Origin: Spirochaetes bacterium ADurb.Bin133
Lineage (GTDB): Bacteria; Spirochaetota; GWE2-31-10; MWDO01
Direction of reading: 5' to 3'
DNA: 64,000 bases
Assembly (NCBI GenBank): GCA_002070605.1
Contig: MWDO01000002.1
Location: 40,723 to 104,722, forward strand
Of the stretch, positions 3,267-62,547 are shown piece by piece (position 1 is the first letter of the stretch; each line of letters opens with the position of its first letter). A program made the position numbers and the translations under genes. The notes under the pieces are model-generated. The model saw only the letters and a list, made by a program, of their open reading frames with translations. It did not search any database and had not been told where the DNA came from.

Positions 3267-3363
3267 TCTCCGTCGGTTTTTTTGGGCGTGGAAATTCGAC
3301 GCATATGAAACAAATATCTTTAAATAGTAATTTTTTTTATTTCCCAAAAAACCGACGGATTAC
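3267..3363. mobile_element. MITE-like repeat copy 1 (short variant, core degenerate, orientation B)
   Basis: CCGTCGGTTTTTTTGGG ... CCCAAAAAACCGACGG inverted arms around core GACGCATATGAAACAAATAT; flanked by near-identical ATAAAAAAGC / ATAAAAAAAGC direct repeats. Confidence 0.6.
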
Positions 3364-3398
3364 ATAAAAAAAGCGTCAAAAAATGACGCTTTTTTTAT
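3363..3398. terminator. rho-independent terminator downstream of rny (bidirectional form)
   Basis: AGCGTCA-aaaaa-TGACGCT hairpin with A-run 5' and T-run 3'. Confidence 0.65.
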
Positions 3399-3399
3399 T

Positions 3400-4932
3400 C
3401 TATCTTGCATACTCCACATACCTGGATTCCCTTACTACGGTAACTTTAATCTTACCGGGGTATCTCAGTTCCGATTCTATTCTCTTAGCGACGTTCTTTG
3501 CAAGCCCCTCCGCTCCGACGTCGCTAGTCGAAGCGCTATTAAGAACTACTCTCAACTCTCTACCCGCTTGTATAGCGTAAGCCTTCTCAACCCCTTCGTA
3601 GCTTTCGGCTATCTGCTCAAGATTTTCCAATCTTTTAATGTAGCTGTCTATACTCTCTCTTCTCGCCCCCGGTCTGCTTGCGCTAATAGCGTCCGCCGCT
3701 TGAACGATCATCGATTCTAAACAACTCGGTTCCACATCTCCATGGTGACTGACAATTGCGTTCAATATCTTGTCAGATTCCCCCATCTTCTTAGCCATTT
3801 CGTACCCGGCTTCTGTGTGACTACCGTCTCCATCTGAAGCGGCGCCTTTTCCTATATCGTGCAATAATCCGCCTCTTTTTGCAATGTTTACATCGCAACC
3901 TAATTCTGCCGCTAGAGCTCCAGCTATTTTTGCAACCTCTACAGAATGTTGTAAAACATTCTGTCCATAGCTGGTTCTAAAATGCAACCTACCTAAGTTA
4001 ATAATCCCCTCGGTAGATATACCCGGAATACCAATACTTAAAACTGCTTTTTCTCCCTCTTCATAAATCATCTCGTTGACTTCATTGATAACTTTGTTTA
4101 TAACCTCTTCGATTCTAGCCGGGTGTATTCTACCGTCTGCAATCAATCTGGTTAAAGCTATCTTTGCAATCTCTCTTCGCACGGGATCAAAGCTGGAAAT
4201 TACAACCGCTTCAGGCGTATCGTCGATAATAATATCTACTCCGATCAATGTCTCAAGCGTTCGTATGTTCCTTCCTTCTCGTCCAATAATTCTCCCTTTC
4301 ATCTCGTCGTTCGGTAAAGAAACGCTGGTTGTCGTTACGTCGGAAGTTACCTCCGACGCTATTCTTTGAATTGTCGTTACTAAGATCTCTCGAGCCTTTT
4401 TGTTAGCGGTAATATTTGCTTCGTCTTCAATCTTATTAATTAAAATTTGAGCTTCTTGTTTTGCTTTTTCTTCAAGCTCTTTAATCAATAAATTTTTAGC
4501 CTGCTCCGAAGTCATTCCGGATATTCTCTCTAAGTCTTTTAACCACCTATTTTGTAGTTTAACAACTTCGTCGAGTTTATCCGTTAATTCCCTATCTTTG
4601 TCGCCAACGCTTCGCTCTCTTTTCTCTAAATCTCCTACTTTCCTGTCTAATTGCTCCTCTTTTTGTATAATACGCTTTTCTTGTCTTTGTAACTCAACTC
4701 TTCTCTCTTTCGTCTCTTTTTCAAAATTATTGCGCTCTTGAATCAAAAAAGTTTTTGCTTCCAAAAGCAACTCTTTTTTCTGAGAATCAGCTTCAAGTTT
4801 TGCTTCCCTTAATATAATATCAGCTCTATTTTCGGCAGAATTTAGCTTGTTTTTTGCAATCAACATTCTTACAAAAAAACCAACCGCGCCGCCTGAGAGG
4901 AGGGATATAGTCCCAATAATAAAATACCACAT
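3400..4932 (-). CDS. rny: ribonuclease Y
   Basis: N-terminal TM helix, coiled-coil, KH domain (GREGRNIRTLE), HD domain (HHGD), 510 aa. Confidence 0.92.
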   Translation of the reverse strand: MWYFIIGTISLLSGGAVGFFVRMLIAKNKLNSAENRADIILREAKLEADSQKKELLLEAKTFLIQERNNFEKETKERRVELQRQEKRIIQKEEQLDRKVGDLEKRERSVGDKDRELTDKLDEVVKLQNRWLKDLERISGMTSEQAKNLLIKELEEKAKQEAQILINKIEDEANITANKKAREILVTTIQRIASEVTSDVTTTSVSLPNDEMKGRIIGREGRNIRTLETLIGVDIIIDDTPEAVVISSFDPVRREIAKIALTRLIADGRIHPARIEEVINKVINEVNEMIYEEGEKAVLSIGIPGISTEGIINLGRLHFRTSYGQNVLQHSVEVAKIAGALAAELGCDVNIAKRGGLLHDIGKGAASDGDGSHTEAGYEMAKKMGESDKILNAIVSHHGDVEPSCLESMIVQAADAISASRPGARRESIDSYIKRLENLEQIAESYEGVEKAYAIQAGRELRVVLNSASTSDVGAEGLAKNVAKRIESELRYPGKIKVTVVRESRYVEYAR

Positions 4933-5018
4933 CCTATCCTCCAGAAATATATTAATATTTCCATGTTAATTCAATTCTAAATTATTGTCAAGTAAATTTG
5001 TAAATATTTGAGACGCCC

Positions 5019-5078
5019 GCGGTTTCTTGAAGGAAAAAATTGACACATATGGAACAAATATTTTTAATTAGTAAATTA
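5019..5078 (+). promoter_or_regulatory. partial repeat copy 2 carrying candidate promoter TTGACA(5040-5045)-N17-TTTAAT(5063-5068) for ORF 5168
   Basis: core TTGACACATATGGAACAAATATTTTTAAT; the same arrangement is duplicated upstream of paralog at 60984-61499. Confidence 0.5.
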
Positions 5079-5167
5079 TTTATTATTTATTAAAAATTAT
5101 CCGAGTTTTTGTAAAGAGTTTTCTACTTTTAGTTGTTATATATATAAAAGAAAAAGGAGAAAATTTT

Positions 5168-5683
5168 ATGAAAAACAAAAAACATTTATTTCACTTTATA
5201 GTATCTGAATCTATGAATACCAATGTTATAGATTTTTTGCTAAAGGAGTTCAAAATTAATACGTTTAGCAAGTTATTTGAAACTATGTTTCGTCTCGTTA
5301 ACAAAAAAATCCCAAAAATGAAGAGAATAGTCGGAAATCATCGCTCCGAATACGCCGTTATAGATAGCTCCGACGATAAAAGAGTGGATAAATATCTTAG
5401 AATCAGCGAAGCGGACTATCTTCAAATAAAAAGATGGCATTCTTTGTATAACGAATTCGGTATGGCTTCGACGGTTCGCGATATTATCCTGTTTTTCTAT
5501 AACGGCGTTGTAAAATACGGGCTAGAAGGATTTCTTGAGCTTGTTGGCAAGAAATTGAAGGTTGATAAATTGAAAAACGACTTTTTGGATAAAATGACAC
5601 AACTGTTAAATATAACCGCTCGGAAACAGCTATTACACACGCTCGTAATCGAAAATTATCCCAAATACGTTTACTGTACTTAA
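5168..5683 (+). CDS. hypothetical protein, paralog family (171 aa), copy A
   Basis: complete ORF with AAGGAG SD; about 90% aa identity to ORF 60984-61499 on the other strand; no recognisable motif. Confidence 0.7.
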   Translation: MKNKKHLFHFIVSESMNTNVIDFLLKEFKINTFSKLFETMFRLVNKKIPKMKRIVGNHRSEYAVIDSSDDKRVDKYLRISEADYLQIKRWHSLYNEFGMASTVRDIILFFYNGVVKYGLEGFLELVGKKLKVDKLKNDFLDKMTQLLNITARKQLLHTLVIENYPKYVYCT

Positions 5684-6181
5684 AACTATTTGTCATTTTA
5701 TAAAAAACCGGCGAGGCGCCAAATTTATTCATAAAAACATTGACTTTAAATCTATTTTGCAATACAAGTATGCTGGATAGATGTTATGAAATTTTATAAA
5801 TTATTTTTATTTCTGATAATTCTTTTATTCGCTTTCCAACCCGCGTTTGTTAAAGAGAGCGCTTTTATGGATTTTTTCAAGATAAATATCGAGAATGAAT
5901 TAAGAGAGTCTCCTTTAAATAACTTTAATATTTTGGCAAATATAAGAATAACTAAATTATTAAAAATGTTTTTCTTATTTTTGTCTTCGTCTATAAAACA
6001 TATTATTACGGCTATTTCCTTTATTATTGTTTCAAAAATATTTTTTAATAAGATCTTAATACTCTATTCATTATTTTTGAGATCTCCCCCTATTATTTAA
6101 TATAAAAATATTTCATTATTTTCTTTTCGCTAACTTTAATCGATTTTTTTATTATTTGTTTTAAAAAAGGGGGAATTTATA

Positions 6182-6661: not shown

Positions 6662-6667
6662 TAAATC

Positions 6668-6700: not shown

Positions 6701-6710
6701 CGTAAAACAG

Positions 6711-6979: not shown

Positions 6980-7369
6980 TTAAAAGCGCGCTCTTGGAGG
7001 AGATCTTGAGTAAAGACGGAAAGATATGTCGAAAAAGTAATTGAGACCGATAAATATAATATTATTATATCTAAAACAAGATTGTTTAATTAAAGAAAAA
7101 ATACATGGGGGAACAAATAATCTTTGTTCGGCTCTTTTTTTTATAAAATAATTAGTCGAGAAATTTTCATTTTGTTTTATATGCGATAAAAAATATATCG
7201 ATTTTGATATAGATATAAATTCGTTAGGATATTGATATTTTTTAGTCCATTTCGGATATTTACCGTCTTCAAAAAGAGTAAAAATAAGAACAAAGATTAT
7301 TAACAAAAAAGGAAGAGCAAAATTAGATTTTATTGAAAGATTTTGTCTATTTAGGGCTTTAAATTTCAT
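6980..7369 (-). CDS. hypothetical membrane protein (129 aa)
   Basis: ORF with one TM segment; low complexity; uncertain. Confidence 0.3.
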   Translation of the reverse strand: MKFKALNRQNLSIKSNFALPFLLIIFVLIFTLFEDGKYPKWTKKYQYPNEFISISKSIYFLSHIKQNENFSTNYFIKKRAEQRLFVPPCIFSLIKQSCFRYNNIIFIGLNYFFDISFRLYSRSPPRARF

Positions 7370-7434
7370 TATCGCTATTTACGTAAAATTATTTTATACG
7401 AGCAAAATATTATAAAAAATATTAATAGTCAAGG

Positions 7435-7544
7435 GTAATCCGTCAGTTTTTTGAGGAATAAAAAATATTTGTTCCATATGTGTCATTTTTTTTGAGATAG
7501 AGTCGCGTTACCTATTTTCTTACCCCAAAAAACTGACGGGACAC
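7435..7544. mobile_element. MITE-like repeat copy 3 (long variant, orientation A)
   Basis: GTAATCCGTCAGTTTTTTGAGG ... CCCCAAAAAACTGACGGGACAC; core AAATATTTGTTCCATATGTGTCA; flanked by 8-bp direct repeat AGTCAAGG (7427-7434 and 7545-7552). Confidence 0.7.
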
Positions 7545-7587
7545 AGTCAAGGTTTTATAAAAAATAATGTTAAAATGTTGTATCAAA

Positions 7588-15120: not shown

Positions 15121-15327
15121 TCTTAATTAACTTCCCCAAAACAAATTTGCCGGCGGAGACTTTTTCCCCGGTCCGACATAACCTATATATCGAAATTTAT
15201 CTTTATAATATTGAAGAAAATCAGAAATTATTATATCCTGTAGCCATATTAGAGTCGAGCGCTTTCTACCGATTCTCTTAAATTTTCAAGGTTTGGTAAA
15301 ATGAATTGGTAAAATAAAATCGATAAT

Positions 15328-30516: not shown

Positions 30517-31821
30517 ATGGAAAACATCTATTTAGAAACGCTTGGGTGTAATAAAAATCAGGTAGATTCGGAGAAAATGTTATACGTTCTCGAAACCGCC
30601 GGATATAATATTGTATCGACGCCGGATTTGGCGGATATAATAATCGTTAATACTTGCGCTTTTATAAAATCAGCCAAAGAAGAAGCTATAGAGGTAACGC
30701 TTGATTTATTAAAATTTAAAGAGTCCGGTAAATGTAAAAAACTAGTCGCGGCGGGTTGTCTTGCTCAAAGATATAAAAATGAATTGATCAAAGAAATTCC
30801 TGAAATAGATCTCATTTTTGGAGTAGGCGACGTTTCTACCATAGCCGCCGCTCTTAACTCGCCGGAAAAAGTTTGCGCGCCGCCGTTTTCAAGCAACGTT
30901 ACGATCGGGCGGAAAAACCTGAGTTATCCCGGAAGCGCGTATTTAAAAATAAGCGACGGCTGCTCAAATAGATGTTCTTACTGTTCGATACCAATTATTC
31001 GGGGCGACCTCAGATCGATTGATATCGACTATCTAATAGAGGAGTTAAAGTTTTTACAAAAAGGAAATCTAAAGGAATTAATATTAATTTCGCAAGATAC
31101 TTCCAGCTATGGTAAAGACATATATCGGCAATCTAAACTTGGAGACTTAATAAAAGAGTTGTCCAACTATTTGAACGCGACGGATTGGCTAAGAGTTCTC
31201 TATCTACATCCGGATCGCGTCGATCTTGAACTTCTACATAAACTTAAAGATACGCCAAATTTTATTCCATATTTCGACATACCGTTTCAATCGGGATCGA
31301 ATGCGATTTTGAAAAAAATGAACAGAAAAAGGACGTCCGAAGAGTATATAACGCTCGTTGAGAATATTAGAAAAGTTTTTGATAATCCCGTTATAAGATC
31401 GACTTTCATAGTAGGTTTTCCGGGCGAAAGCGATTCTGATTTTATAGACACTATAAATTTTATAAAACAAATCGAAATAGATTGGATTGGAGCGTTCGCA
31501 TATTCAAGGGAAGAAGATACGATTGCCGGCTCGATGAAAAATCAAATTAAATCGAAAGTAAAAACCGATAGATTAGACCATCTATTATCCGTTTCAGAAG
31601 AAATTTCCCAAAATAAATTAAAACGATTTGTAGGAACTAATCAAAAAATACTTATTGAAGAAAAAGTAGAAAATGAAGAGTTATATATAGGAAGGTTTTG
31701 GGGACAAGCCCCCGAAGTAGACGGATTGGTTGTGATTGAGTCGGATTCCGCTCAAATAGGCGAATTCTGCGCTTGTAAGATCGTTAAACAAAACGGAAAC
31801 GACTTTTTTGGTATAGCGTAA
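30517..31821 (+). CDS. rimO: ribosomal protein S12 methylthiotransferase RimO
   Basis: MTTase N-domain, radical SAM CSNRCSYCSIP, YLKISDGC and LISQDTSSYG closely match E. coli RimO, C-terminal TRAM. Confidence 0.85.
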   Translation: MENIYLETLGCNKNQVDSEKMLYVLETAGYNIVSTPDLADIIIVNTCAFIKSAKEEAIEVTLDLLKFKESGKCKKLVAAGCLAQRYKNELIKEIPEIDLIFGVGDVSTIAAALNSPEKVCAPPFSSNVTIGRKNLSYPGSAYLKISDGCSNRCSYCSIPIIRGDLRSIDIDYLIEELKFLQKGNLKELILISQDTSSYGKDIYRQSKLGDLIKELSNYLNATDWLRVLYLHPDRVDLELLHKLKDTPNFIPYFDIPFQSGSNAILKKMNRKRTSEEYITLVENIRKVFDNPVIRSTFIVGFPGESDSDFIDTINFIKQIEIDWIGAFAYSREEDTIAGSMKNQIKSKVKTDRLDHLLSVSEEISQNKLKRFVGTNQKILIEEKVENEELYIGRFWGQAPEVDGLVVIESDSAQIGEFCACKIVKQNGNDFFGIA

Positions 31822-32051
31822 TTATTAAAAAAATTTGTTTGATATGCGTTAAAAAGTTTGCCATAATTTTAGCGACGATTGTCGATTTATACAAAGATTA
31901 TATTCTTGGGTAATTTACGTTAAAACGATACGTGGAAAAACAAAATGATTTATCTAATTGATACCGGATTACCTTTTTTCTTAATCTTGAAAACAGATAC
32001 GTATTTGATATATCTAGAAAACCGACGGGCGCCTAAAAATTCTTAATTTTC

Positions 32052-39124: not shown

Positions 39125-39269
39125 AAGTATCTCCTAAATATTAGATTTTGATAAAAGATTTTTGTTTATAATATAATAAAAAATAAATCTAATAAAAGTA
39201 AAATTTATTTATTTTTACCGAATTTAAAATTTAATATAAATTTCTTTACAATATGGAGTTTAAAAAAAT

Positions 39270-39313
39270 TGTTTTATATGCGTCAATTTTCCTCTCCTAA
39301 AAAACCGGCGGGT
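39270..39313. repeat. partial MITE-like repeat copy 8 (core + one arm)
   Basis: TTTATATGCGTCAATTTTCCTCTCCTAAAAAACCGGCGGG matches core plus short-variant arm. Confidence 0.5.
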
Positions 39314-39393
39314 TATTTTTGATTTTCAATATTTTCTTGACTTATTTTCTAAAATATATTTTATTATTTATTCGATTATAAAAGGAATAAAAA

Positions 39394-49335: not shown

Positions 49336-50715
49336 ATGAAAAATACGGATTATAAAATATATTGGGACGAAATAAAAAAAGAATTAGAACTCGTAATAAG
49401 AAAATCAGATTACAAATTGTGGATTAGTAGAATAGAATATTACGACTTTAAAATAAAAGATAAAGTTATGTACTTATCCGTTCCCTCTAATTTTATAAAA
49501 GATAATGCTTTAAGATTTAAGGAAGATATAGAAAGCATATTAACAAGAATTTTTGGACAAACGGCGTATATTGAATTTGTTATTTTTATTCCAAACGACG
49601 AAGCCGTTGAAGAGATAAGAGAAAGCGCTCTTCCAAAAAAAGAAAAAATAGAATTAAAAAAACAGAACGGCGCGCAAAATGATAAAAATATTGACAATAT
49701 TGAAAACTTTTCATTCGATTCTTTTATAGTAGGAGCGTCTAACGAATTTGCTGCAGAAACGGCTAAAATTGTCGCTCAAAATCCCGGTATCAAATATAAC
49801 CCTTATTTTATATGGGGGGATAGCGGTTTAGGTAAAACTCATCTTTTAAGATCTATAGAAAAATATATCAAGGAGTATTTTCCCTCGAAAAAAGTATTAT
49901 ATTTAACCTCTGAGGATTTTTTAAACGATTTTGTTCATTCGTTTTTAAACAATACCCAACAGCAATTCAGAATAAAATATAGACAGCTAGACGTTTTGTT
50001 AATAGACGACGTTCAATTTTTTTCCAGTAAAGAAGCTATTCAAGCTGAATTATTTCATACTTTTAATAAACTTTCAAATTCTAATAAACAAATGGTTTTT
50101 TCTTGCGATCAACCAATAAACAAGGTAAAAAAAATAGAGAATAGGCTTCGAAGCAGATTTTCAATGGGATTAACCGTAGATTTGAGACCGCCTGATTTTG
50201 AGTTACGTATCGCCATTTTAAAAAGATTGTCTTCCGCGTATTCGTTGAATTTTACCAGCGAGGCGATGGAGTATATCTGTTCAAATTCATCCGGAAGCGT
50301 AAGAGATTTAAAGGGCTCTTTTAAAGATCTATTGGCGTATTCCAGCATAATGAAAATAGAAACGATTACAAAAGACGTTGCAATCGAAAGGCTAAAAGAT
50401 AAAATTACTACTAATTTATACTCTTCTCCAATTTCCGTAGATAAAATTATACTCTCCGTCTCTCAGTATTTCAACATTAAATCCCACGATATCACGGGAA
50501 TAAAAAGAACCAAATCAATTGTTCTTGCAAGACAAATTTCCATGTATTTAAGTAGAAAATTAACAAGACTGTCGACTACTCAAATAGGCGCTTTTTTTGG
50601 GGATAAAGAGCACGGAACCGTAATGCACGCTACAAAAAAAATTGACGATCTTATTATAAAAGACAGTAAAATAAAAAACGATATAGATTTTCTTATCAAT
50701 AGTATAAGAGATTAA
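49336..50715 (+). CDS. dnaA: chromosomal replication initiator DnaA
   Basis: AAA+ Walker A GDSGLGKTHLL, box VII, C-terminal DnaA-box-binding HTH; 459 aa. Confidence 0.93.
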   Translation: MKNTDYKIYWDEIKKELELVIRKSDYKLWISRIEYYDFKIKDKVMYLSVPSNFIKDNALRFKEDIESILTRIFGQTAYIEFVIFIPNDEAVEEIRESALPKKEKIELKKQNGAQNDKNIDNIENFSFDSFIVGASNEFAAETAKIVAQNPGIKYNPYFIWGDSGLGKTHLLRSIEKYIKEYFPSKKVLYLTSEDFLNDFVHSFLNNTQQQFRIKYRQLDVLLIDDVQFFSSKEAIQAELFHTFNKLSNSNKQMVFSCDQPINKVKKIENRLRSRFSMGLTVDLRPPDFELRIAILKRLSSAYSLNFTSEAMEYICSNSSGSVRDLKGSFKDLLAYSSIMKIETITKDVAIERLKDKITTNLYSSPISVDKIILSVSQYFNIKSHDITGIKRTKSIVLARQISMYLSRKLTRLSTTQIGAFFGDKEHGTVMHATKKIDDLIIKDSKIKNDIDFLINSIRD

Positions 50716-50931
50716 AAACAAGCAAAAAAATTGTTAATAACTTGTTTGAAAATATTTTTATTGTTTTTATTACAAAAATATGATAAATATATTTACATAG
50801 TTATTAACAATGTAAATATATTTATCATTACTATTTATATAGTTATTAACGTTATTGACAGACGTACTAATATATACTACTAAATTTATATTAATATTAA
50901 TAGGTAGGGTATAAAAAATACAGGAGATTGT
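50716..50931. promoter_or_regulatory. dnaA-dnaN intergenic region: AT-rich palindromes, candidate oriC / dnaN promoter
   Basis: 18-bp perfect inverted arms TGATAAATATATTTACAT / ATGTAAATATATTTATCA around GTTATTAAC; four GTTA(A/T)TAAC repeats. Confidence 0.4.
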
Positions 50932-52038
50932 ATGAAATTCATTTGTTCAAAAGAAAGCATCTTAAAAATCTTAAGTATAGCGGAGAGTATCATCTCTACA
51001 AGAAATAGTATTTCTATATTATCTAACGTTCTTCTAGAAGCAAAGAATAATTTGGTTAAAATAACGGCTTCTGAAACGTCGATTACCTTTGTATCGGAAA
51101 TAAATGCGGAGATTTTAGAAGAAGGTTCTGTTTCCGTATATTGCAACAGGCTATATACTCTCGTTAGAAAATTATCCGGAAACGAAATAGAAATTTTTTC
51201 CGACGAAGAAAATGTCGTTACAATTAATCCTAAAGAGAATAAAAAAATAGAATACAAATTAAAAGGAATTGATTCGGATAAATTTCCTCCCGTTAAAATC
51301 ACAGACGACGTTAAATATTTTTCAATTAAACAGGAGATATTTACAGAAATGACAAAAAAAACAATTTTTGCCATATCTCCGAGCGACAACAGAAAATTTA
51401 TTAATGGCGTTTTTTTTGAAAAAACGGAAGAAAGTATAAAGATGGTTTCTACCGACGGTAAGAGATTGGCGTTTATAAAAAAAGAATTATCTATACGGGA
51501 GATAGATAACGGAAGCGTTATTATACCCCCTAAGATACTGCACGAAACTATAAAATTATGTTCAAATAACGGCGATATCCAGATGGGATTAACTCAAAAA
51601 AACGTTTTTATAAAAATAGACAATTTCTTTTTTATTTCAAATTTATTAGATGGAAATTTTCCGCCTTATCAAAAGGTTATACCTACCGAGTTTGTAGGAA
51701 ATTTTAAAATAGACAGAAAAACTTTTTTAGAATCTTTAGATAGAATTTCTCTTATGGGAGACAAAGATTCAAATAAAGTAATTTTATCAATTTTTGATAA
51801 TGAGTTAAAAATATATACTGAAAATATAACGTTTGGATCGGGAAAAGAGATATTATCCGTGGATTATATAGGAAATAAATTTGAAATAGCTTTAAATATC
51901 ATGTATTTGATCGACGTTTTAAACGTTTTATCTGAAGACGACGTTTTAATCTATTTTAAAGATTCTCAATCGACAATTTCGGTAAGGCAAGATAAAGATA
52001 ACGATTATATCTATATTATGATGCCAATGACTATTTAA
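50932..52038 (+). CDS. dnaN: DNA polymerase III beta sliding clamp
   Basis: 368 aa, three-domain beta-clamp pattern, synteny dnaA-dnaN-recF. Confidence 0.85.
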   Translation: MKFICSKESILKILSIAESIISTRNSISILSNVLLEAKNNLVKITASETSITFVSEINAEILEEGSVSVYCNRLYTLVRKLSGNEIEIFSDEENVVTINPKENKKIEYKLKGIDSDKFPPVKITDDVKYFSIKQEIFTEMTKKTIFAISPSDNRKFINGVFFEKTEESIKMVSTDGKRLAFIKKELSIREIDNGSVIIPPKILHETIKLCSNNGDIQMGLTQKNVFIKIDNFFFISNLLDGNFPPYQKVIPTEFVGNFKIDRKTFLESLDRISLMGDKDSNKVILSIFDNELKIYTENITFGSGKEILSVDYIGNKFEIALNIMYLIDVLNVLSEDDVLIYFKDSQSTISVRQDKDNDYIYIMMPMTI

Positions 52039-52048
52039 TGGAGAAAAT

Positions 52049-53152
52049 TTGTTTGTTAAATCTATAAGCGCGACAAATTTTCGAAATTTTAGAAATTTAG
52101 AATTTTGTTTTAAAGAACAAGAGAGACATATAATAATAAAGTCCCCAAACGGAACGGGTAAAACTAACTTTCTCGAATTATTATACTATTTTACATATTT
52201 AAAATCCTTTAGAGCCGTTTCCGACGGCGAGTTAATAAATAAAGGGGAAAACTACTTTTCTATTTTAATTAATTACGATAACGACGAAGATAACGAAATA
52301 TCTGTTAAATATTTAAATAAATCTAAAGAGGTCGTTTACAACAATAAAAAGATAAAAAGATACTCTGAAATATTTGGAAAATATTGTTCGGTAGTTTTTT
52401 CAAGCGACGATATGTTAATTATTAAAGGAAATCCAAACTACAAGAGAAAATTTTTTGATATGTTTTTTTCAATAATCGATATCGAGTATTTTTATAGTAT
52501 TAAAAATTATAATTGCGTATTAAAACAAAAAAACGCTCTTTTAAAAAATAAGTCGTTTGATAAAAAATTGTTGGAAATTTATAACTATCAGTTGGCGCAA
52601 TATATAAATATTATTCAGCAAAAAAGAGACGAGTTTATTAAGATAACCAGTAAAGATTTTAACGATAAATATTTAGAAATAGGCGATTATAATTACAGCG
52701 CCAAAATTATCTATTATCCTTCAATTAAAATTAAAGAGTTTACTCAAGAAAATATTTTTAACTTTTTAATGGAATGTTGCAAAAAAGAAGTTGAACTTGG
52801 CTTTTCTTTTTACGGCGTCCATAAAGATAACTATCAATTTTTATTAAATAATCTGAATTTTAATAGTTACGCTTCTTTTGGTCAAACTAGATTGGCGTCG
52901 TTAATTATGAAAACCATACAAGCGGATAATTATAAAAAATATAACAATATTTCGCCGATTTTATTACTAGACGACGTGATTTTAGAGTTGGATAACTATA
53001 GGAAGGTCAAATTTGTTTCAAAAATATTTGATTATAAACAGTTTTTTATTACAATTAGCGACGATACTCTTTTAAAAATTTTTGAAAAAAGTTCGTATTT
53101 ATCATTTTTGGAGATTATAGATGGAAAAATACAAAAAAGTAACTTTAATTAA
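52049..53152 (+). CDS. recF: DNA replication and repair protein RecF
   Basis: Walker A SPNGTGKTNFLE, ABC signature region, LLLDDV Walker B; 367 aa. Confidence 0.88.
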   Translation: MFVKSISATNFRNFRNLEFCFKEQERHIIIKSPNGTGKTNFLELLYYFTYLKSFRAVSDGELINKGENYFSILINYDNDEDNEISVKYLNKSKEVVYNNKKIKRYSEIFGKYCSVVFSSDDMLIIKGNPNYKRKFFDMFFSIIDIEYFYSIKNYNCVLKQKNALLKNKSFDKKLLEIYNYQLAQYINIIQQKRDEFIKITSKDFNDKYLEIGDYNYSAKIIYYPSIKIKEFTQENIFNFLMECCKKEVELGFSFYGVHKDNYQFLLNNLNFNSYASFGQTRLASLIMKTIQADNYKKYNNISPILLLDDVILELDNYRKVKFVSKIFDYKQFFITISDDTLLKIFEKSSYLSFLEIIDGKIQKSNFN

Positions 53153-53432
53153 AGACGTTATACCGTACTGCTTTTATAAAGGGGAATATAAAAACGAATT
53201 TTATCTTGATTTAATAAAAAAAAATTGGAAAGTTATTGTGGGAGAAAGACTCGAAAATTTCATAACGCCGGATAAAATAATAAATAAAAAATTATATATA
53301 TCGTGCGCTCATACGGGTTTTATTCAATCTCTTAATTTTCAGAAGGAAAATATTATTAAAAATATTTCAAAAAATATTGAAAAAGAAATAATTCTTGATA
53401 TTAAATATTTTATAGGAAAATCAAAGCGCTAA
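53121..53432 (+). CDS. DUF721-family protein (recF-associated)
   Basis: 103 aa; conserved position after recF with 32-nt overlap. Confidence 0.55.
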   Translation: MEKYKKVTLIKDVIPYCFYKGEYKNEFYLDLIKKNWKVIVGERLENFITPDKIINKKLYISCAHTGFIQSLNFQKENIIKNISKNIEKEIILDIKYFIGKSKR

Positions 53433-53448
53433 ATATAATAGCGCTGCT

Positions 53449-53550
53449 CCGTCGGTTTTTTGGGGAATAAAAAATATTTGTTCCATATGCGTCGAATTTT
53501 TTTGAAACAGGCTCGCGTTGTCTATTTCTTTACCCCAAAAAACTGACGAG
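53449..53550. mobile_element. MITE-like repeat copy 4 (long variant, orientation A)
   Basis: CCGTCGGTTTTTTGGGG ... CCCCAAAAAACTGACGAG; core AAATATTTGTTCCATATGCGTCG. Confidence 0.65.
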
Positions 53551-53656
53551 CTACTTAAAATAAATTATTTAATCTTGACATAAATTGTATAAAAATGGTA
53601 TAATTCTTTTCTTTAATGGAAATAACAATTAAGTTTATAAAATATAGGAGATAAAT

Positions 53657-53797
53657 ATGAAAAGAACGTATCAACCGTCGAACGTGAAAAAATTTAGAAC
53701 TCACGGCTTTAGAAGCAGGATGTCGACAAAAAGCGGAAGATTAATTTTAAAGAGAAGAAGACTTAAGGGAAGAAAAAGATTAACGGTATCGGCTTAA
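53657..53797 (+). CDS. rpmH: 50S ribosomal protein L34 (not in ORF track, 46 aa)
   Basis: translation [46 protein letters not shown]; GGAG SD; canonical position before rnpA. Confidence 0.92.
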
Positions 53798-53803
53798 TAA
53801 ATT

Positions 53804-54138
53804 ATGAAAAAGGAAGAAAGAATAAAAAAAAGTTATGAGATAAAAAATATACTCGACAAAGGGGCGGTAGAAAAAACGGCTCGATACGCTTTTTATTTCG
53901 TTAAGAACGAATTAAATATAAATAGACTCTGTATAGCGGTAAAAAAAAAATCGGTAATTCTGTAGAAAGAAACTACGAGAAGCGAGTCGTTCGCGAATTT
54001 TTTGACAAGATAAAAAACGAGATAAATAATACGGACATAGTTATCTCCGTAAAATCTAGAAAAGGAAATTTTTCGGAGAAAAAAGAAGATTTTTTATTTA
54101 TTCTAGAAAAGATGAAAAAAAATGCTATTTTTAAATAA
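53804..54138 (+). CDS. rnpA: ribonuclease P protein component RnpA, reading frame interrupted at A10 tract (53941-53950)
   Basis: frame 1 gives MKKEERIKKSYEIKNILDKGAVEKTARYAFYFVKNELNINRLCIAVKKK then stop; shifting by one base after the A-run restores IGNSVERNYEKRVVREFFDKIKNE...MKKNAIFK. Confidence 0.7.
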
Positions 54139-54364
54139 GATTGTAATCCTATTTATAAATATTTATAAAAAATTTATTTCGCCTTTATTTGTTTCTTCTT
54201 GTAGATTTTACCCTTCTTGCTCCGAATATGCAAGACAGGCTTTTGTTAAGTATAATTTTTTTAAAGCGTTTTTTTATACATTGTATAGATTGATTAGATG
54301 CGGTCCCTGGAGTAAAGGGGGATACGATCCGTTAGAGCGACATTGGAGAGACGATGGACAATAA
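54122..54364 (+). CDS. yidD: membrane protein insertion efficiency factor YidD
   Basis: CRFYPSCSEYARQAF and RCGPWSKGGYDP motifs; 80 aa. Confidence 0.9.
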   Translation: MLFLNKIVILFINIYKKFISPLFVSSCRFYPSCSEYARQAFVKYNFFKAFFYTLYRLIRCGPWSKGGYDPLERHWRDDGQ

Positions 54365-56081
54365 TAGGACTTTTGTTTTTATGATAATACTTACCGTTAT
54401 TTTTGTAGGTATTAACGTTTATTTTATGTATAACGTAAAAGATGTAAAAAGCGATGCCGTTATATCGAACGGCGCTTCGGAAAAGAAAAATAGTAATATT
54501 GAATCAGAAACAACGCCGGAAATGGAATTTGAAGCGTTATATGAACAAAAAGAGACTTTAGAAGAGAATATTATATATGAAAATAGAAATATTTTACTTG
54601 AAATTAGTAGAGTAAACGGAGAAATAGTCAAAGCTTACGTAAAAGATAGTTTTTTGGACAAAAATCAAAATAAAAAATTTAGTATTGTAACAGGCAAACC
54701 AAATAATAACTCTCTCAAGTTAAAGTTTGGATCATGGTTAAACGGAAAAACAATTTCAGAATTAACCGGCGGTAAGGAGAGTTATACGTTAGAAAAAGTT
54801 GACGACAAGTTTATTTTTTCTACAAAGATAAAAGATATAAAAAACGAAAATATTTATAAAATTGAAAAAATTTATACGTTTGTGGAAGATGAAAATATTT
54901 TTAGGTTTGACGTAAAAATATCTAACGATAAAAACGAGCAGATGAACTTTGATAGCTCCGACGTCGCTTTTAGTCTGGGATGGGGACCGGATCTAAATTC
55001 CGACGGACAAAAGTTTAATAAAAGATACGATATGTATTCTTATTTTAATGGAAAGAAAGTTGAAAAAATTGATATTGATAATAAGCTCGTTAAAAGATCA
55101 ACCGTACCGGGATTTGGAGAAAAGTATAGACAAGGCGGGGAAAGTTGGATTGCCAGAGAAGATAGATATTTTGCGGCAATAATTTACCCGGACAGCCAGA
55201 ATTATAAATACTTTTTTGATTATAAAGATAGTCGGGAAAATAAGTATTATTGCGGTTTTGAGAGATATACGGAGAATTCAATGCTAGAATCTTCCTTTTA
55301 CATCTACATTGGTCCTAAAATTAGATCTATTGTTAGAAAGTATAATAATTTTAAAGATTTTAAGTTAAATGATACGAATTTTTCCAAAGTAGTTGAATAT
55401 AAATTTTTTGGATTTGGCGACGTTATGGGGGTTATCTTAAATTTTATCTATAAATTAGTAAAAAATTACGGATTAGCTATAATAATTTTAACAGTATTGA
55501 TAAAATTATTATTATCCCCTTTGACTTATAAAAGTATGGAGTCGCAGGAAAAAATGGGTAAATTACAGCCGAAACTTAAAGAACTGCAAGAAAAATATAA
55601 AGATAAACCGGAGATATTAAACAGAGAAACGATGAATCTATACAAGAAAGAAGGCGTTAATCCTTTTGGCGGTTGCTTCCCTTTGCTTTTACAGATGCCT
55701 TTATTGTTGGCGATGTATCAACTTTTAGATAAAATGGTCGAACTCAAAGGCGCCGGATTTTTATGGATAAAGGATTTATCTCTTCCGGACGCCGTTATAA
55801 ATTTTAATTTTACGATACCGTTTGTTAATATAAGCTCGTTTAATATTTTACCTATAGTTATGGTTGCAACGCAAATTTTTTCGAGCCTTATTATGCCCGA
55901 TATGCAATCTAATAAGCAGGCAAAAATGATGATGTGGATGATGCCCTTGTTGTTTTTCTTTATGTTTTATAACGTATCGTCCGGATTGGTTTTGTATTGG
56001 ACGGTAATGAATATATTGAACGTTATCCAACAATTGCTAAAAAATTCGATGAAAAATAAAAAGATTTTGAAAAAAGCTTAG
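54354..56081 (+). CDS. yidC: membrane protein insertase YidC
   Basis: N-terminal TM, large periplasmic domain, C-terminal 60-kDa IMP core (GCFPLLLQMPLLLAMY); 575 aa. Confidence 0.9.
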   Translation: MDNNRTFVFMIILTVIFVGINVYFMYNVKDVKSDAVISNGASEKKNSNIESETTPEMEFEALYEQKETLEENIIYENRNILLEISRVNGEIVKAYVKDSFLDKNQNKKFSIVTGKPNNNSLKLKFGSWLNGKTISELTGGKESYTLEKVDDKFIFSTKIKDIKNENIYKIEKIYTFVEDENIFRFDVKISNDKNEQMNFDSSDVAFSLGWGPDLNSDGQKFNKRYDMYSYFNGKKVEKIDIDNKLVKRSTVPGFGEKYRQGGESWIAREDRYFAAIIYPDSQNYKYFFDYKDSRENKYYCGFERYTENSMLESSFYIYIGPKIRSIVRKYNNFKDFKLNDTNFSKVVEYKFFGFGDVMGVILNFIYKLVKNYGLAIIILTVLIKLLLSPLTYKSMESQEKMGKLQPKLKELQEKYKDKPEILNRETMNLYKKEGVNPFGGCFPLLLQMPLLLAMYQLLDKMVELKGAGFLWIKDLSLPDAVINFNFTIPFVNISSFNILPIVMVATQIFSSLIMPDMQSNKQAKMMMWMMPLLFFFMFYNVSSGLVLYWTVMNILNVIQQLLKNSMKNKKILKKA

Positions 56082-56103
56082 TTTACATAGAAAGGAGAGA
56101 ATT

Positions 56104-56724
56104 ATGATAACTAGAGAATTTTCCGGTAAAACGGAAAAAGAAATAATAGACAACGCGTTAGATACGCTCAAACTCAAAGAGGATCAAGTCGTTTTTGATT
56201 TTGAAAACAAAGGAGGTATATTTTCTTTCGGGAAAAAGGATTTAACGGCAAAAGTTTCTTTTGAAGACGACTTGTTATTCGGAAACAGATGTCTAATGTT
56301 TGTCAAAGAACTACTAGAAAAAATGGATATTGAAGCAAAAATTTATTTAATTGAAGAAGACGATGAAAAAATAATCATTGAGATAGAATCGCCGGATTCA
56401 GCGCTTATAATAGGAAAACAAGGTAAAAACCTTGAAGCTATTCAAACTATAGTAAACGTCGCCCTTAACAGAAACTCTAATATATGGACCAAGGTGATAA
56501 TAGATATAGGAAATTACAGATCTCGAAAAGAGAAAATGCTAAAAAAAACCGCTCTTACCGCCGCTATGCAGGTAAGAAAATCCAAAGAAAGCGTTCTTTT
56601 AGATCCGATGAATCCTTTTGAAAGAAGAATTATACATATGACTTTAAAAGAAGAAAAAAACGTCGAAACGGAATCGGAGGGCGAAGGTTTGGTGAAAAGA
56701 GTTAGAGTATTTTATAAAGAATAG
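56104..56724 (+). CDS. jag: Jag/KhpB RNA-binding protein (KH + R3H)
   Basis: Jag_N, KH (IIGKQGKNLEAIQ) and R3H (ERRIIHM) regions; 206 aa; follows yidC. Confidence 0.8.
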   Translation: MITREFSGKTEKEIIDNALDTLKLKEDQVVFDFENKGGIFSFGKKDLTAKVSFEDDLLFGNRCLMFVKELLEKMDIEAKIYLIEEDDEKIIIEIESPDSALIIGKQGKNLEAIQTIVNVALNRNSNIWTKVIIDIGNYRSRKEKMLKKTALTAAMQVRKSKESVLLDPMNPFERRIIHMTLKEEKNVETESEGEGLVKRVRVFYKE

Positions 56725-56729
56725 TCGTT

Positions 56730-57440
56730 ATGAATCAATTAGATATATCTTATTGGAAAAATAAAAAGAAAAAGAGAATTAAAATTTTTGTCTCTTCTTT
56801 TATCAACTATAATTTTTATAATTCTATAAAGGATAAAAACATAGATATTTTTAGGATCGATATCGAAGAAATTGCGATAAACCATAATATTAATTCTGTA
56901 AATAAAGTTTCTTTAAACGATTTAATTATTAATTTTAAAAACAATTATATAAATAATGCGTTTTTAGCCGTTGATATACCGGTTATCGATTTGTATAACG
57001 AAGGTAAAGACGTATCCAACGTCGTCGATATATACAAAAAAAGCGACGTAGATTTTATAATATTAAATATAGAACATAATGTTACAAATATCGCTAAGAA
57101 ATTAACAAATTTTGGGATACCTTATATAATTTCGTTTAAAAACGGCTACGAAGACGGCGATTTAAGAATAAGCGTTTGTATAGAAGAGCTTATTCATTTA
57201 GGGAATACCGGAGCTTATTTGATTATAACAGAAAATTTAAACGAACCTTTATATAATAAAATACGTAATAGTTGTCCAATTCCGGTTATAAGCGATAGCT
57301 TAAATAAAGATAACGACGGTCATTATTTATTGTTATCTAAAATCATAGGGTTAATTGAAAATAAAAATAGTTTTTTAAATATTAAAGATCTTGTATCTCA
57401 GTCGTACGATATATATCTTAATAAAATTAATGAAAAATAG
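56730..57440 (+). CDS. hypothetical protein (236 aa, possible alpha/beta barrel)
   Basis: no motif recognised. Confidence 0.4.
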   Translation: MNQLDISYWKNKKKKRIKIFVSSFINYNFYNSIKDKNIDIFRIDIEEIAINHNINSVNKVSLNDLIINFKNNYINNAFLAVDIPVIDLYNEGKDVSNVVDIYKKSDVDFIILNIEHNVTNIAKKLTNFGIPYIISFKNGYEDGDLRISVCIEELIHLGNTGAYLIITENLNEPLYNKIRNSCPIPVISDSLNKDNDGHYLLLSKIIGLIENKNSFLNIKDLVSQSYDIYLNKINEK

Positions 57441-58770
57441 TAAAAAATATATATGCGTTGAATGCGCTTACGCCACCATGTCTTGGATTGGAAAATGTCC
57501 TCAATGTAACTCTTGGAATACGTTAATTGAGGAGAAACAACAAGAAAAAGAGTTTATATCTCGACAAGAGATAAAACTGAATTTATTAAAAGATATTAAA
57601 ATTGATCCTCATGAAATTATAAAAATTTCTGACAATGATTTGAATATGTTCTTTGGAGACGGCATTGTTTGCGGTTCAGTTATTTTGCTTTCGGGTGAGC
57701 CCGGAATAGGGAAATCTACCTTTCTTTTTTATTTAGCGGATAATATTGAAAGTAGTAGAAAAATATACTATTTTTCCGGCGAGGAAACTTTACAACAATT
57801 AAAAATTAGAGCGGAGCGACTTGAACTAAAAAAGGATAAATTTTTTTTATCAAATAATAATGATTTAACCGCAATTCTAGAGTTGTGTAAAAAAGAGAGA
57901 CCGGATATAATTTTTTTTGACTCCATTCAAACTTTGAAACATGAAAATATTGAAAACGACGGTTCTGTTAGTAGTTTATCTCAGATGAGGATTTGCGCTA
58001 ACGATATAGTCGAATTTTCAAAATCTTTCAATATTCCCGTTATTATAGTCGGTCATATTAATAAATCGGGCGAGATAGCCGGACCAAAAATTATCGAACA
58101 TTTGGTCGACGTCGTTTTGTATTTTGAATTTGACGCCAGAAATAACTATAGAATATTGAGATCGGTTAAAAACAGATTTGGAACTATCGATAATATTTTG
58201 TTTTTTGATATGTTGGCAAAAGGTTTAAAAGTTGTTGATAATAATCTTGAAACGCTGAAAGGGAAAAATATTTATAATAGCGTTGTTGGAAAGTGTAAAA
58301 CGATCGCCGTAGAGGGGATTCGTACTTTTTTGATAGAAATTGAAGCGTTGGTCGTACCTACGGTATTTGTTAATCCGAGAAGGTATTCTGAAGGGATAGA
58401 CGTAAGCAGAGTTAATAAAATTATTGGGGTAATCAATAAATATTTGAATGAAAATCTTAATAATTACGATATTTATGTTAATATAACTCAAGGAATAAGA
58501 ATTAAAGACGTGGGAATCGATTTGGCAATAGCTATGGCAATATATTCTTCAAAAATTAATGCGGCTATTAAAGGAGATACCTGTTTTATCGGAGAAATTT
58601 CTTTGACCGGAGAGATACTTAGCGTGAAAAAAATGTTCAATAGAGTAAAAGAGGCTGAGAAATATAATATTAATAAAACCTATTTATCAGAAAATATCGA
58701 TATTGAAAATAAGGAAAATTGTATTATAATTGAAAATGTTAGAGATATGAAAAATATTTTTAATAAATAA
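57430..58770 (+). CDS. radA: DNA repair protein RadA/Sms
   Basis: C4 zinc finger CVECAYATMSWIGKCPQCNSWNT, Walker A GEPGIGKST, KNRFG motif, C-terminal Lon-protease-like domain; start set to Met just before the zinc finger. Confidence 0.9.
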   Translation: MKNSKKYICVECAYATMSWIGKCPQCNSWNTLIEEKQQEKEFISRQEIKLNLLKDIKIDPHEIIKISDNDLNMFFGDGIVCGSVILLSGEPGIGKSTFLFYLADNIESSRKIYYFSGEETLQQLKIRAERLELKKDKFFLSNNNDLTAILELCKKERPDIIFFDSIQTLKHENIENDGSVSSLSQMRICANDIVEFSKSFNIPVIIVGHINKSGEIAGPKIIEHLVDVVLYFEFDARNNYRILRSVKNRFGTIDNILFFDMLAKGLKVVDNNLETLKGKNIYNSVVGKCKTIAVEGIRTFLIEIEALVVPTVFVNPRRYSEGIDVSRVNKIIGVINKYLNENLNNYDIYVNITQGIRIKDVGIDLAIAMAIYSSKINAAIKGDTCFIGEISLTGEILSVKKMFNRVKEAEKYNINKTYLSENIDIENKENCIIIENVRDMKNIFNK

Positions 58771-58773
58771 AGT

Positions 58774-58870
58774 CCCCTGTCAGTTTTTTTGGATGGGGAA
58801 ATGACACATATGGAACAAATATTTTTAATTATTAAATTATTTTTTATTCCCCAAAAAACCGGCGGGATAC
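58774..58870. mobile_element. MITE-like repeat copy 5 (short variant, orientation B) with candidate outward promoter ATGACA-N17-TTTAAT (58801-58829)
   Basis: CCCCTGTCAGTTTTTTTGGATGGGG ... CCCCAAAAAACCGGCGGG; core TGACACATATGGAACAAATATTTTTAAT; ORF 58881 begins 11 nt after the element. Confidence 0.65.
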
Positions 58871-60951: not shown

Positions 60952-60983
60952 AGCCGTATCCTGTCGATTTCTTGCGAAAAAAA

Positions 60984-61499
60984 TTACGCGCAGTAAACGT
61001 ATCTGGGATAATTTTCGATTACGAGGGCGTATAACAGCTGTTTTCGAGCGGTTATATTCAACAGTTGTGTCATTTTACCCAAAAAGTCGTTTTTCAACTT
61101 ATCAATCCTTAATTTCTTGCCAACAAGCTCAAGAAATCCTTCCAACCCGTGTTTTGTAACGCCGTTATAAAAAAACAGTATAATATCTCGAACCGTCGAA
61201 GCCATACCGAATTCGTTATAAAAATAATGCCATCTTTTAAGTTGTATATAGTCCGCTTCGCTGATCCTAAGGTATTTATCCAACCTTTTATCGTCGGAGC
61301 TATCTATAACGGAGTATTCGGAGCGATGATTTCCTATTATTCTTTTCATTTTTGGCATTTTTTTGTTAATAAGGCGAAACATCGTTTCAAACAGTTTACT
61401 GAACGTATTAATTTTGAACTCTTTTAGTAAGAAATCTATGACGTTACTATTCATAGATTCAGACACTATAAAGTGAAATAAATGTTTTTTGTTTTTCAT
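60984..61499 (-). CDS. hypothetical protein, paralog family (171 aa), copy B
   Basis: about 90% aa identity to ORF 5168-5683 including identical MKNKKHLFHFIVSESMN N-terminus; same SD and leader. Confidence 0.7.
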   Translation of the reverse strand: MKNKKHLFHFIVSESMNSNVIDFLLKEFKINTFSKLFETMFRLINKKMPKMKRIIGNHRSEYSVIDSSDDKRLDKYLRISEADYIQLKRWHYFYNEFGMASTVRDIILFFYNGVTKHGLEGFLELVGKKLRIDKLKNDFLGKMTQLLNITARKQLLYALVIENYPRYVYCA

Positions 61500-61559
61500 A
61501 AAATTTTCTCCTTTTTCTTTTATATATATAACAACTAAAAGTAGAAAATTCTTTACAAA

Positions 61560-61650
61560 AACTCGGATAATTTTTTAGAAAATAACAAATATTTTGCTAG
61601 TTAAAACTATTTGTTCCATATGTGTCAATTTCTTTCCTCAAGAAACCTAC
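61560..61650 (-). promoter_or_regulatory. partial repeat copy 6 with candidate promoter for ORF 60984-61499 (TTGACA at 61623-61628, minus strand)
   Basis: reverse complement reads GAAATTGACACATATGGAACAAATAGTTTTAAC then a 100-nt leader almost identical to 5069-5167. Confidence 0.5.
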
Positions 61651-61754
61651 GGAACGCAAATCAAAAACAGAAATTAACTTTAATTTGAAATTAAGATATG
61701 CATTAAATATCCATATATAATAAGCGTATTTATAACGAGGGTAATTATCGTTTG

Positions 61755-62336
61755 TTAGAGTTTATCTTTTTCGCTAAAAACTATAGCCGTATAAGTTTCA
61801 ATAGACAAGTTGTTTTTTTTCCACTCCTGCGGATCTATCATAGCTTTCATACATAAATTAGAAAAAAAATCGTCAAAGTTTGGAAGTTGTTCCCATACCT
61901 GAGGTAAGAAAGTGGCAGAGTTCATTCCTTTTTTAATAATTACTCCGTCTTTATATGGAACAATTAAATTATATAACTCTTTATAATTTTCGTACTCAAC
62001 TTTTTTAGGCGGAGTTAAAATACTAATTTCAATACAAACGTCATTAATTTCTTCCGGGGACAACGGATTAAATCTATAATCGGAATAAGCGGCGTTATAG
62101 GCGTTTTCAATAACCGTTTGATAGATAGGAAATTCTGGAGCGATGTATCCGATGCAACCGCGGAGTTTGCCGTTTTTATGTAAAGTAACAAAACCTCCTC
62201 CATTACTTTTTAAATCTTTTGAAAGATCTTCAATCTCTTTTTTAGAGAGCCATATCTTTCGAGACTTAGTTTTAATTGTTTCTCTAGCTAAATGCAATAA
62301 ATATTTTTTACTTTCATTTGAAATAGTATTGTTCAT
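61755..62336 (-). CDS. AMMECR1 domain protein
   Basis: LRGCIGY motif and PYKDG region; 193 aa. Confidence 0.75.
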   Translation of the reverse strand: MNNTISNESKKYLLHLARETIKTKSRKIWLSKKEIEDLSKDLKSNGGGFVTLHKNGKLRGCIGYIAPEFPIYQTVIENAYNAAYSDYRFNPLSPEEINDVCIEISILTPPKKVEYENYKELYNLIVPYKDGVIIKKGMNSATFLPQVWEQLPNFDDFFSNLCMKAMIDPQEWKKNNLSIETYTAIVFSEKDKL

Positions 62337-62394
62337 AAATTTATCCTTAAGAGCGAAGATGTATCTATTATACCATATTTAACGACATATTTAT

Positions 62395-62438
62395 CTTTAT
62401 AGTTTAAATGTTTCACGTGAAACATTTAAACTATAAAG
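62395..62438. repeat. perfect 44-bp palindrome centred on CACGTG (arms extend to about 29 bp if the MITE insertion is removed)
   Basis: CTTTATAGTTTAAATGTTTCAC|GTGAAACATTTAAACTATAAAG read directly. Confidence 0.8.
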
Positions 62439-62547
62439 TGTCCCGTCAGTTTTTTGGGGAATAGAAAATATCTGTTTCATATGTGTCAATTTTTTTGAGA
62501 CAGACTCGCGTTATCCATTTCTTTACCCCAAAAAACTGACGGATTAC
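62439..62547. mobile_element. MITE-like repeat copy 7 (long variant) flanked by 10-bp direct repeat AACTATAAAG
   Basis: TGTCCCGTCAGTTTTTTGGGG ... CCCCAAAAAACTGACGGATTAC; direct repeats at 62429-62438 and 62548-62557. Confidence 0.75.

Follow-up and report, generated by a model that had tools for sequence, protein, structure and literature searches.

The window analyzed here, a 64,000-nt stretch of contig MWDO01000002.1 from Spirochaetes bacterium ADurb.Bin133, has a GC content of ~33% and carries dnaA-dnaN-recF, a DciA-like gene, rpmH, yidD, yidC, radA, and the genes for RNase Y and HtrA. Its proteins have matches in metagenome-assembled genomes (MAGs) of uncultured Spirochaetota from anaerobic digesters, such as ADurb.Bin133. 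The sampling of the species itself is poor, and the relatives of its SerRS are 91% (nearest) and 76% (next) identical. Between its genes lies a dispersed family of short repeats, which are very probably MITEs (miniature inverted-repeat transposable elements) and related gene cassettes moved by transposition. The repeats, the cassettes and the neighboring promoter sequences are listed below; for a MITE, the + strand means that its core reads AAATATTTGTTCCATATGTGTCA on the + strand, and E-values are from nhmmer.

3267-3363, - strand: short-variant MITE, 97 bp, with both arms (E 2e-18), shared with metagenome contig L119
5012-5719, + strand: cassette 1, with a degenerate terminal repeat (5012-5033), core TTGACACATATGGAACAAATAT (5040-5061), an open reading frame (ORF; 5168-5683) and a second repeat (5698-5719)
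5168-5683, + strand: 171-aa gene of cassette 1, for a predicted single-chain double ribbon-helix-helix (TraY-like) protein
5740-5745, + strand: TTGACT hexamer, exactly 20 nt past the cassette 1 end at 5719
7435-7544, + strand: 110-bp MITE of the long-A form, its target duplication AGTCAAGG lying at 7427-7434 and 7545-7552 (E 1e-31)
31818-32035, + strand: possible decayed multi-module copy with a degenerate core, a GCGACGATTGTCG spacer and an arm-like AAAACCGACGGGCGCC (E 0.1-7.5, not significant)
39255-39314, + strand: remnant consisting of half a core and the right arm, the left arm missing (E 2e-8)
53444-53554, + strand: 111-bp MITE of the long-A form whose tips are degenerate and which shows no clear duplication; the rpmH promoter follows at 20 nt (E 8e-29)
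53575-53604, + strand: host sigma-70 promoter of rpmH (TTGACA, TATAAT), whose -35 starts exactly 20 nt past the MITE end at 53554
58772-58870, - strand: short-variant MITE, 99 bp (E 1e-19)
60956-61657, - strand: cassette 2, with a repeat (60956-60976), a 171-aa ORF (60984-61499, - strand), a core (61606-61627) and a repeat (61636-61657)
62438-62547, + strand: 110-bp MITE of the long-A form, its target duplication AACTATAAA lying at 62429-62437 and 62548-62556 (E 3e-33)
62568-62596, + strand: host sigma-70 promoter of serS (TTGACA-17-TATTAT), whose -35 starts exactly 20 nt past the MITE end at 62547

Structure, spread and mobility of the repeats

An earlier note on this DNA, made from the letters alone, had described eight loci with a common MITE-like repeat, built of terminal inverted repeats around a conserved core with CATATG and dispersed in both orientations between genes. 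This description was borne out. The 23-nt core AAATATTTGTTCCATATGTGTCA matched the window 6 times with at most 3 mismatches (0 expected), and the 17-nt arm CCGTCAGTTTTTTGGGG matched it 10 times (0.11 expected), giving five elements with both arms. An nhmmer profile made solely from copies outside the window recovered exactly the same eight loci: 62439-62547 (E 3e-33), 7435-7544 (1e-31), 53448-53554 (8e-29), 58776-58870 (1e-19), 3270-3363 (2e-18), 61569-61654 (4e-13), 5017-5091 (1e-11) and 39258-39314 (2e-8). The elements begin with 5'-GTAATCCGTCAGTTTTTTGGGG and end with CCCCAAAAAACTGACGGATTAC-3', the terminal inverted repeats being 22 bp long (GTAATCCGTCAGTTTTTTGGGG), and the core contains TGACRCATATG. 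Copies are 82-310 bp long, typically 97-111 bp; none is spanned by an ORF of at least 100 aa, and all those in the window are strictly intergenic. The copy at 3267-3363 is flanked by ATAAAAAAGC (3257-3266) and ATAAAAAAAGC (3364-3374), and contig L119, which shares it, is 99% identical to window 365-4290.

The proposed long and short variants were reproduced in a MAFFT alignment of the eight loci (long at 7435, 53449 and 62439; short at 3267 and 58774, with two gene-linked copies), but related contigs contain further size classes, namely a long-B class and multi-module elements of up to ~300 bp. Among the three supposed partial copies, the one at 39255-39314 stands as a remnant, whereas the other two (5019-5078 and 61560-61650) are not truncated MITEs but belong to the two cassettes, of which they form the 5' ends. 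Two weak remnants suggested earlier lack statistical support, the one at 15133-15160 being undetected by the outside-only profile and the one near 32018-32035 matching it insignificantly (32013-32031, E 7.5). A degenerate core lies at 31818-31852 (E 0.1-0.4), and a decayed copy near 31818-32035 is possible but unproven.

The family extends beyond the window: of 119 loci matched by the core in a metagenome scan, ~80 hold real elements, these being from anaerobic digesters and activated sludge, and a 20-kb locus of a relative holds 4-5 copies. The same scan of a species-representative genome collection, which does not include the source species, yielded 25 isolated chance matches and one cassette, in a Spirochaetes MAG (L021). 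No match to the repeat was found in a plasmid collection, and the sole match of an arm scan of viral contigs was an unrelated conserved phage gene.

Mobility is indicated by target-site duplications. A direct repeat of 8-10 bp with at most 1 mismatch abuts the ends in 28 of 41 unique repeat-bounded elements, compared with 1 of 41 in a control in which the right flank was moved by 25 nt. The exact duplications are mostly 9 bp and in some cases 8 bp long, for example AAAATTTGC, TTTTAAATT, AAAATAGCC, CGATATTTT, TATTTATTT, GCGCTTTTT and AATAGTCGC. One pair of filled and empty sites was obtained from related metagenome contigs: in L108, a 110-bp copy sits between two GGAGAACTT repeats, and in L096, flanks 96-99% identical to those of L108 are joined by a single GGAGAACTT. 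Even between loci and between organisms, the identity of copies reaches ~97% (e.g., window 7435 and L108, compared by eye), so the family was recently active. The elements thus show every defining feature of MITEs (terminal inverted repeats, target duplications, lack of an ORF, dispersed copies and filled/empty polymorphism) save an identified autonomous partner. They would constitute non-autonomous DNA transposons of a lineage of uncultured Spirochaetota from anaerobic digesters. The MITEs would be cut out and inserted by a transposase supplied in trans, making staggered target cuts 9 bp apart, and we infer that this enzyme is of the DDE type.

The arms are predicted to form very stable hairpins (z -4 to -7.5). 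At arm positions 8-18 (GTC[A/G]GTTTTTT), the two arms agree in 44-47 of 47 elements; the polymorphic A/G position 11 is the exception (32 of 47), and its raw counts (26/8/7/6) do not clearly point to compensatory change. Near-invariance together with the lack of clear compensatory change fits protein recognition rather than selection for a hairpin, despite the stable folding. In long-A copies (e.g., window 62466-62510), the insert TGAGACAGA can pair with the core sequence TCTGTTTCA, so that the predicted fold has an inner stem of 9 bp.

Directly to the left of the 62438 MITE lies a near-perfect palindrome of ~40 nt, TATAGTTTAAATGTTTCACGTGAAACATTTAAACTATA (62393-62437), whose right arm is overlapped by the target duplication of the MITE. 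It may serve the AMMECR1 gene and serS, which lie on either side of it, as a bidirectional terminator or operator. It is also the source of chance miRNA-like matches in Rfam; a relaxed search of that database gave only such sub-threshold hairpin matches, and there was no match at gathering score across the whole window, so the repeat has no Rfam family.

Gene cassettes, the 171-aa protein and the conserved core

Window segments 5073-5683 and 60984-61594 are inverted duplicates with 90% identity and belong to two cassettes of ~705 bp (~705-760 bp across the family), which are bounded by the same repeats as the MITEs. The 24 distinct cassettes in related contigs have one layout, in which an arm, one or more cores, a conserved leader and the ORF are followed by TAAAATTATTTTTTATTCCCCAAAAAACCGACGGGGTAC, with the second arm 3' of the stop codon. 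Target duplications also flank cassettes (GGAGTAAA in L037; YGTTTTGA in L033, seen by eye). The 9-mer AAATTATTT occurs twice per cassette, in the 5' leader and right after the stop codon, and the junction in the short MITE is exactly as expected for a deletion between these direct repeats. From this sequence match, we infer that such a deletion, removing the gene of a cassette, gave rise to the short MITE. The cassettes themselves, with inverted repeats and a duplication around a passenger gene and no transposase, have the makeup of mobile insertion cassettes (MICs).

In a cassette at L135, the repeat and core are separated from the 171-aa gene by a C-terminal TnpA fragment of the IS200/IS605 type (L135:2760-3059; ..WGGEFWTKGYFVSTVG..). 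At L106:42-1097, a 194-aa HNH-endonuclease-like ORF with sub-threshold Pfam HNH matches lies between two near-identical MITE left halves and could be a nested insertion or a homing-type gene within a MITE.

The 171-aa protein matched nothing in Pfam or NCBIfam, and in a set of 1.8 billion representatives its family amounts to just 10 of the clusters formed at 50% identity. Its genes are multi-copy, with at least 9 differently tagged copies in one MAG, and the place of each paralogue in the chromosome is the same in many samples. Of the cassette ORFs, the 18 that were callable and comparable are intact and under purifying selection, with a median ratio of nonsynonymous to synonymous divergence (dN/dS) of 0.13 at a dS of 0.44. 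An early AlphaFold2 model from a shallow alignment (pLDDT 56) was not used. The predicted fold is a double ribbon-helix-helix DNA-binding module followed by C-terminal helices, which as modeled places the protein in the ribbon-helix-helix superfamily. Its closest structural analogues are TraY and VirC2; sequence searches of the PDB returned nothing, and Foldseek gave no significant match. Across the divergent family, Y62, Y84, R104 and F109 are invariant, and no acidic triad is conserved.

A 164-aa protein at L028 matches the profile of the main family weakly (hhalign probability 2%); an HMM of the wider family matches it at 4.5e-51, but L028 was part of that HMM. A second subfamily of ~190 aa (hmmsearch E ~1e-16) is found at L050:1249-1822, L062:141-732 and L091:2075-2630 (- strand). 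Half-MITEs consisting of core and right arm lie downstream of two of its genes.

The core, TGACRCATATG(R)AAC, is present in 1-6 copies per element, its iterations (CATATGYGTCA-ATTT) having the same orientation and variable spacers, and its conservation forms a contiguous 21-nt block, TGACRCATATGRAACAAATAT. On the opposite strand, it reads TTGACA-N17-TTTAAT and agrees with 11 of 12 sigma-70 positions. We rejected an outward promoter, such as Correia elements have, as its primary role: the -10 TTTAAT lacks the A at position 2, the promoter scan makes no call, the orientation relative to neighboring genes is unbiased (6 versus 10 in tandem intergenic regions), the conserved block is contiguous, and the cassette gene has a conserved TTGTTATATA of its own. 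The latter is an extended -10-like sequence ~30 nt before the ATG, and it is kept in a 46%-identical homologue that has neither repeats nor core.

Divergent relatives carry a different palindrome at a similar upstream site, within ~100-135 nt of the start codon: GCGCATATGTGCC at L028 and a perfect AAACGGGAATTCCCGTTT in the ~190-aa subfamily. The promoter-proximal TTGTTA(T/A)(T/A)TA is shared by all of these. Such co-variation of protein and site is expected of an autoregulatory operator, suggesting that the core, rather than being a promoter, would be the binding site of the ribbon-helix-helix protein of the cassette; to its being the operator of this protein we give, judging from sequence, a little less than even weight. 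The repeats may also have a secondary regulatory role. A GGGAATTCCC-centered version of the AAACGGGAATTCCCGTTT palindrome occurs inside two long MITE variants (L069:1207-1465 and L089:1120-1428).

Spacing between insertions and host promoters

Every 5-mer at every offset was counted in 142 unique element-end flanks, reading outward (6388 tests). The top 5-mer was TTGAC at offset 20, with 11 observed versus 0.53 expected (p 1e-11 over 6388 tests), and at offsets 18-21 it is present in 18 ends. Of these, 17 were listed, nearly all continuing with TAnnnT at 16-18 nt, and a co-oriented ORF follows in 17 of the 18. The hexamer is host DNA, since the 9-bp duplication takes up only flank positions 0-8 and no two of the 20-nt spacers are alike. 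The empty site L096 reads TTGCTT at the offset-20 position, and the promoter may face either end of the element (11/67 versus 4/60). In the window, the spacing of exactly 20 nt is seen at rpmH, at serS and at cassette 1, as listed above. The duplication AGTCAAGG of the 7435 MITE contains, on the - strand, a TTGACT -35-like hexamer upstream of the gene at 6980-7369; this insertion would thus have duplicated a -35 box instead of landing 20 bp away from one.

These counts indicate statistically that insertion is non-random, with a substantial minority of ends placed exactly 20 bp upstream of a host sigma-70 -35 hexamer. The sharp peak at a single offset argues for a mechanistic landmark over mere tolerance of upstream insertions, and we give equal weight to target selection on the one side and to sampling or selection on the other. 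In the literature searched, no bacterial DNA transposon was reported to target promoters at a fixed distance, and none is known to do so. It is conceivable, if rather unlikely, that the family is a self-contained promoter-hunting system, in which a landmark steers insertion to 20 bp upstream of the -35, the TraY-like protein binds the iterated core, and MITEs plant operator arrays before host promoters such as those of rpmH and serS, forming a transposon-distributed regulatory network. The landmark could then be RNA polymerase/sigma on TTGACA or an element-encoded factor that recognizes TTGAC. The core of the element itself, TTGACACATATG, likewise begins with TTGAC.

The rpmH copy lies within a chromosomal origin-type cluster (window 49336-58770) of dnaA, dnaN, recF, a DciA-like gene, rpmH, an rnpA-like ORF, yidD, yidC, a jag-like gene and radA. 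The rnpA-like ORF (53804-53965) encodes only 53 aa and may reflect a frameshift or mis-call. The GC skew of the window is positive from ~24 kb and strongest past ~52 kb.

Alternative explanations, known systems and significance

The reading of the family as transposed MITEs and cassettes bearing an operator and favoring promoters has several points against it. Thirteen of the 41 elements lack a recognizable duplication, and the promoter spacing is seen in only ~12% of ends. The related loci were fetched through the core motif, which biases copy statistics, and come from metagenome assemblies throughout. An empty site for the window's own copies was not obtained via SerRS orthologues because the contigs of the nearest relative break at the MITE edge: the four Logan contigs of the 91%-identical SerRS relative (L201-L204) all begin at, or slightly inside, the place where the right MITE edge lies in the window, 40-85 bp upstream of serS. 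In short-read assemblies of this lineage, the repeats thus appear to cause breaks at predictable places. Finally, no transposase with these repeats was seen in the window (by eye), inside repeat pairs or in ~1.2 Mb of related contigs. The ORFs enclosed by repeat pairs 0.9-4 kb apart are housekeeping genes and one HNH-like ORF, no transposase was found next to solo repeats or linked to the long-A insert outside MITEs, and an all-against-all search of the related contigs returned the cassette as the sole multi-copy sequence. Multi-copy insertion sequences (ISs) are usually lost from short-read assemblies.

The lack of another transposase is one of the observations that would fit an autonomous ~705-bp cassette, its 171-aa protein being a new, very small transposase or an essential cis-acting factor that also moves the MITEs. 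The short MITE as a deletion derivative of the cassette would follow the usual relation of IS and MITE, the 18 comparable ORFs are intact and under purifying selection, and TraY and VirC2, its closest structural analogues, assist DNA-processing enzymes as accessory factors. However, the fold of the protein is not that of an RNase-H-like, HUH, serine or tyrosine recombinase, its family has no conserved acidic triad, and a 46%-identical homologue exists without repeats or core. Moreover, the cassettes are old (dS 0.44, at most ~93% nucleotide identity between loci), in contrast to the recent insertion of MITEs, and we regard cassette autonomy as improbable. Still less probable is an immobile family of regulatory modules (a shared promoter or operator) or of structured RNAs or terminators. 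The 11 of 12 matches to TTGACA-N17-TTTAAT, the very stable arm hairpins and the strictly intergenic location in the window speak for it, but target duplications and the empty site show insertion, the -10 without its essential A drew no promoter call, and copies in tandem intergenic regions are not biased toward 5' gene ends (6 versus 10). A structured RNA was likewise rejected, given that Rfam holds no family at gathering threshold and only chance miRNA-like matches at relaxed E-values, and that the arm counts show no clear compensatory change. We give hardly any credence to REP/REPIN-type palindromes spread by a RAYT (Y1/HUH) transposase: the elements are short, intergenic, densely spaced inverted repeats, and an IS200/IS605-type TnpA fragment lies beside one copy, but REPINs make no target duplications, 9-bp duplications being the rule here, and no RAYT gene was seen, the TnpA piece being a truncated remnant at a single locus.

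Transposed MITEs and cassettes thus remain our preferred explanation, and they can be compared with known systems. The earlier note had likened the repeats to Correia, RPE or BOX-type elements; they are of the same kind, but the family is not a member of Correia, BOX, RPE or REP. Correia elements have a TA target duplication and a Correia consensus with an IHF site, whereas the duplication here is 9 bp of varied sequence and the sequences are unrelated. Compared with prokaryotic MITEs in general (Correia of Neisseria, ERIC, MITEAba12, BrickBuilt of Porphyromonas and Coxiella QMITE; PMC10969869, PMC4596501), the elements are similarly ~100 bp, AT-rich, intergenic and ORF-less, with terminal inverted repeats, flanking direct repeats, size subfamilies, hairpin potential and internal sigma-70-like sequences. 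They differ from those MITEs in showing no sequence similarity, in matching no Rfam family or plasmid, in sharing an iterated module of 11-15 nt with a gene cassette, and in their insertion at a fixed distance upstream of -35 hexamers. An array of internal repeats is a feature of BrickBuilt as well (PMC10969869; PMC4596501). Spirochaetes are not mentioned in the MITE review (PMC10969869).

MICs consist of IS-type inverted repeats around a passenger gene without a transposase and are thought to be mobilized in trans (PMC3129680). Like MICs (e.g., MIC231 of Bacillus cereus) and transporter ISs, the cassettes have a repeat-bracketed passenger gene and no transposase, and they show duplications. 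Unlike in MICs, the passenger is always the same orphan ribbon-helix-helix gene, in many diverged and selected copies per genome, and the apparent operator lies within the element and in MITEs. The 171-aa protein, a putative DNA-binding protein, resembles the single-chain tandem ribbon-helix-helix proteins TraY (F plasmid), VirC2, AvtR and single-chain Arc at only 4-10% identity, and differs from them in an extra helical C-terminal part of ~70 residues and in being encoded in a transposon cassette rather than a conjugation or viral locus.

As regards the source of the transposase, duplications of 8-9 bp are made by IS1, the IS903 and IS10/IS50 groups and IS256, as well as by the IS66 family. 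In IS66 elements, the terminal repeats are 20-30 bp long and open with GTAAGCG, and the direct repeats measure 8 bp (PMC11946415). The present family partly resembles IS66 (including the ISBst12 group) in its 22-bp repeats, GTAA-type start and 8-9 bp duplications; its arm tips are GTAATCC, GTATCCC and GTAACCC, with GTAAGCC in L085/L199. However, the tips agree at only 4-6 of 7 bases, most duplications are of 9 bp instead of 8 bp, and TnpA/TnpB/TnpC were not seen in the sequence available, which does not cover the whole genome. A relation to IS66, judged on these termini, is only a lead.

Since MITEs are common, a new family in an uncultured spirochaete is unremarkable by itself. Three traits set this one apart: the apparent parent cassette carries only an orphan, multi-copy TraY-like gene under selection; the MITEs spread arrays of what appears to be the operator for the TraY-like protein; and insertions form a sharp peak upstream of real promoters, at a distance of exactly 20 bp from the -35 hexamer. 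If this peak reflects mechanism, it would represent a new mode of target choice and a natural way to set an array of binding sites beside promoters.

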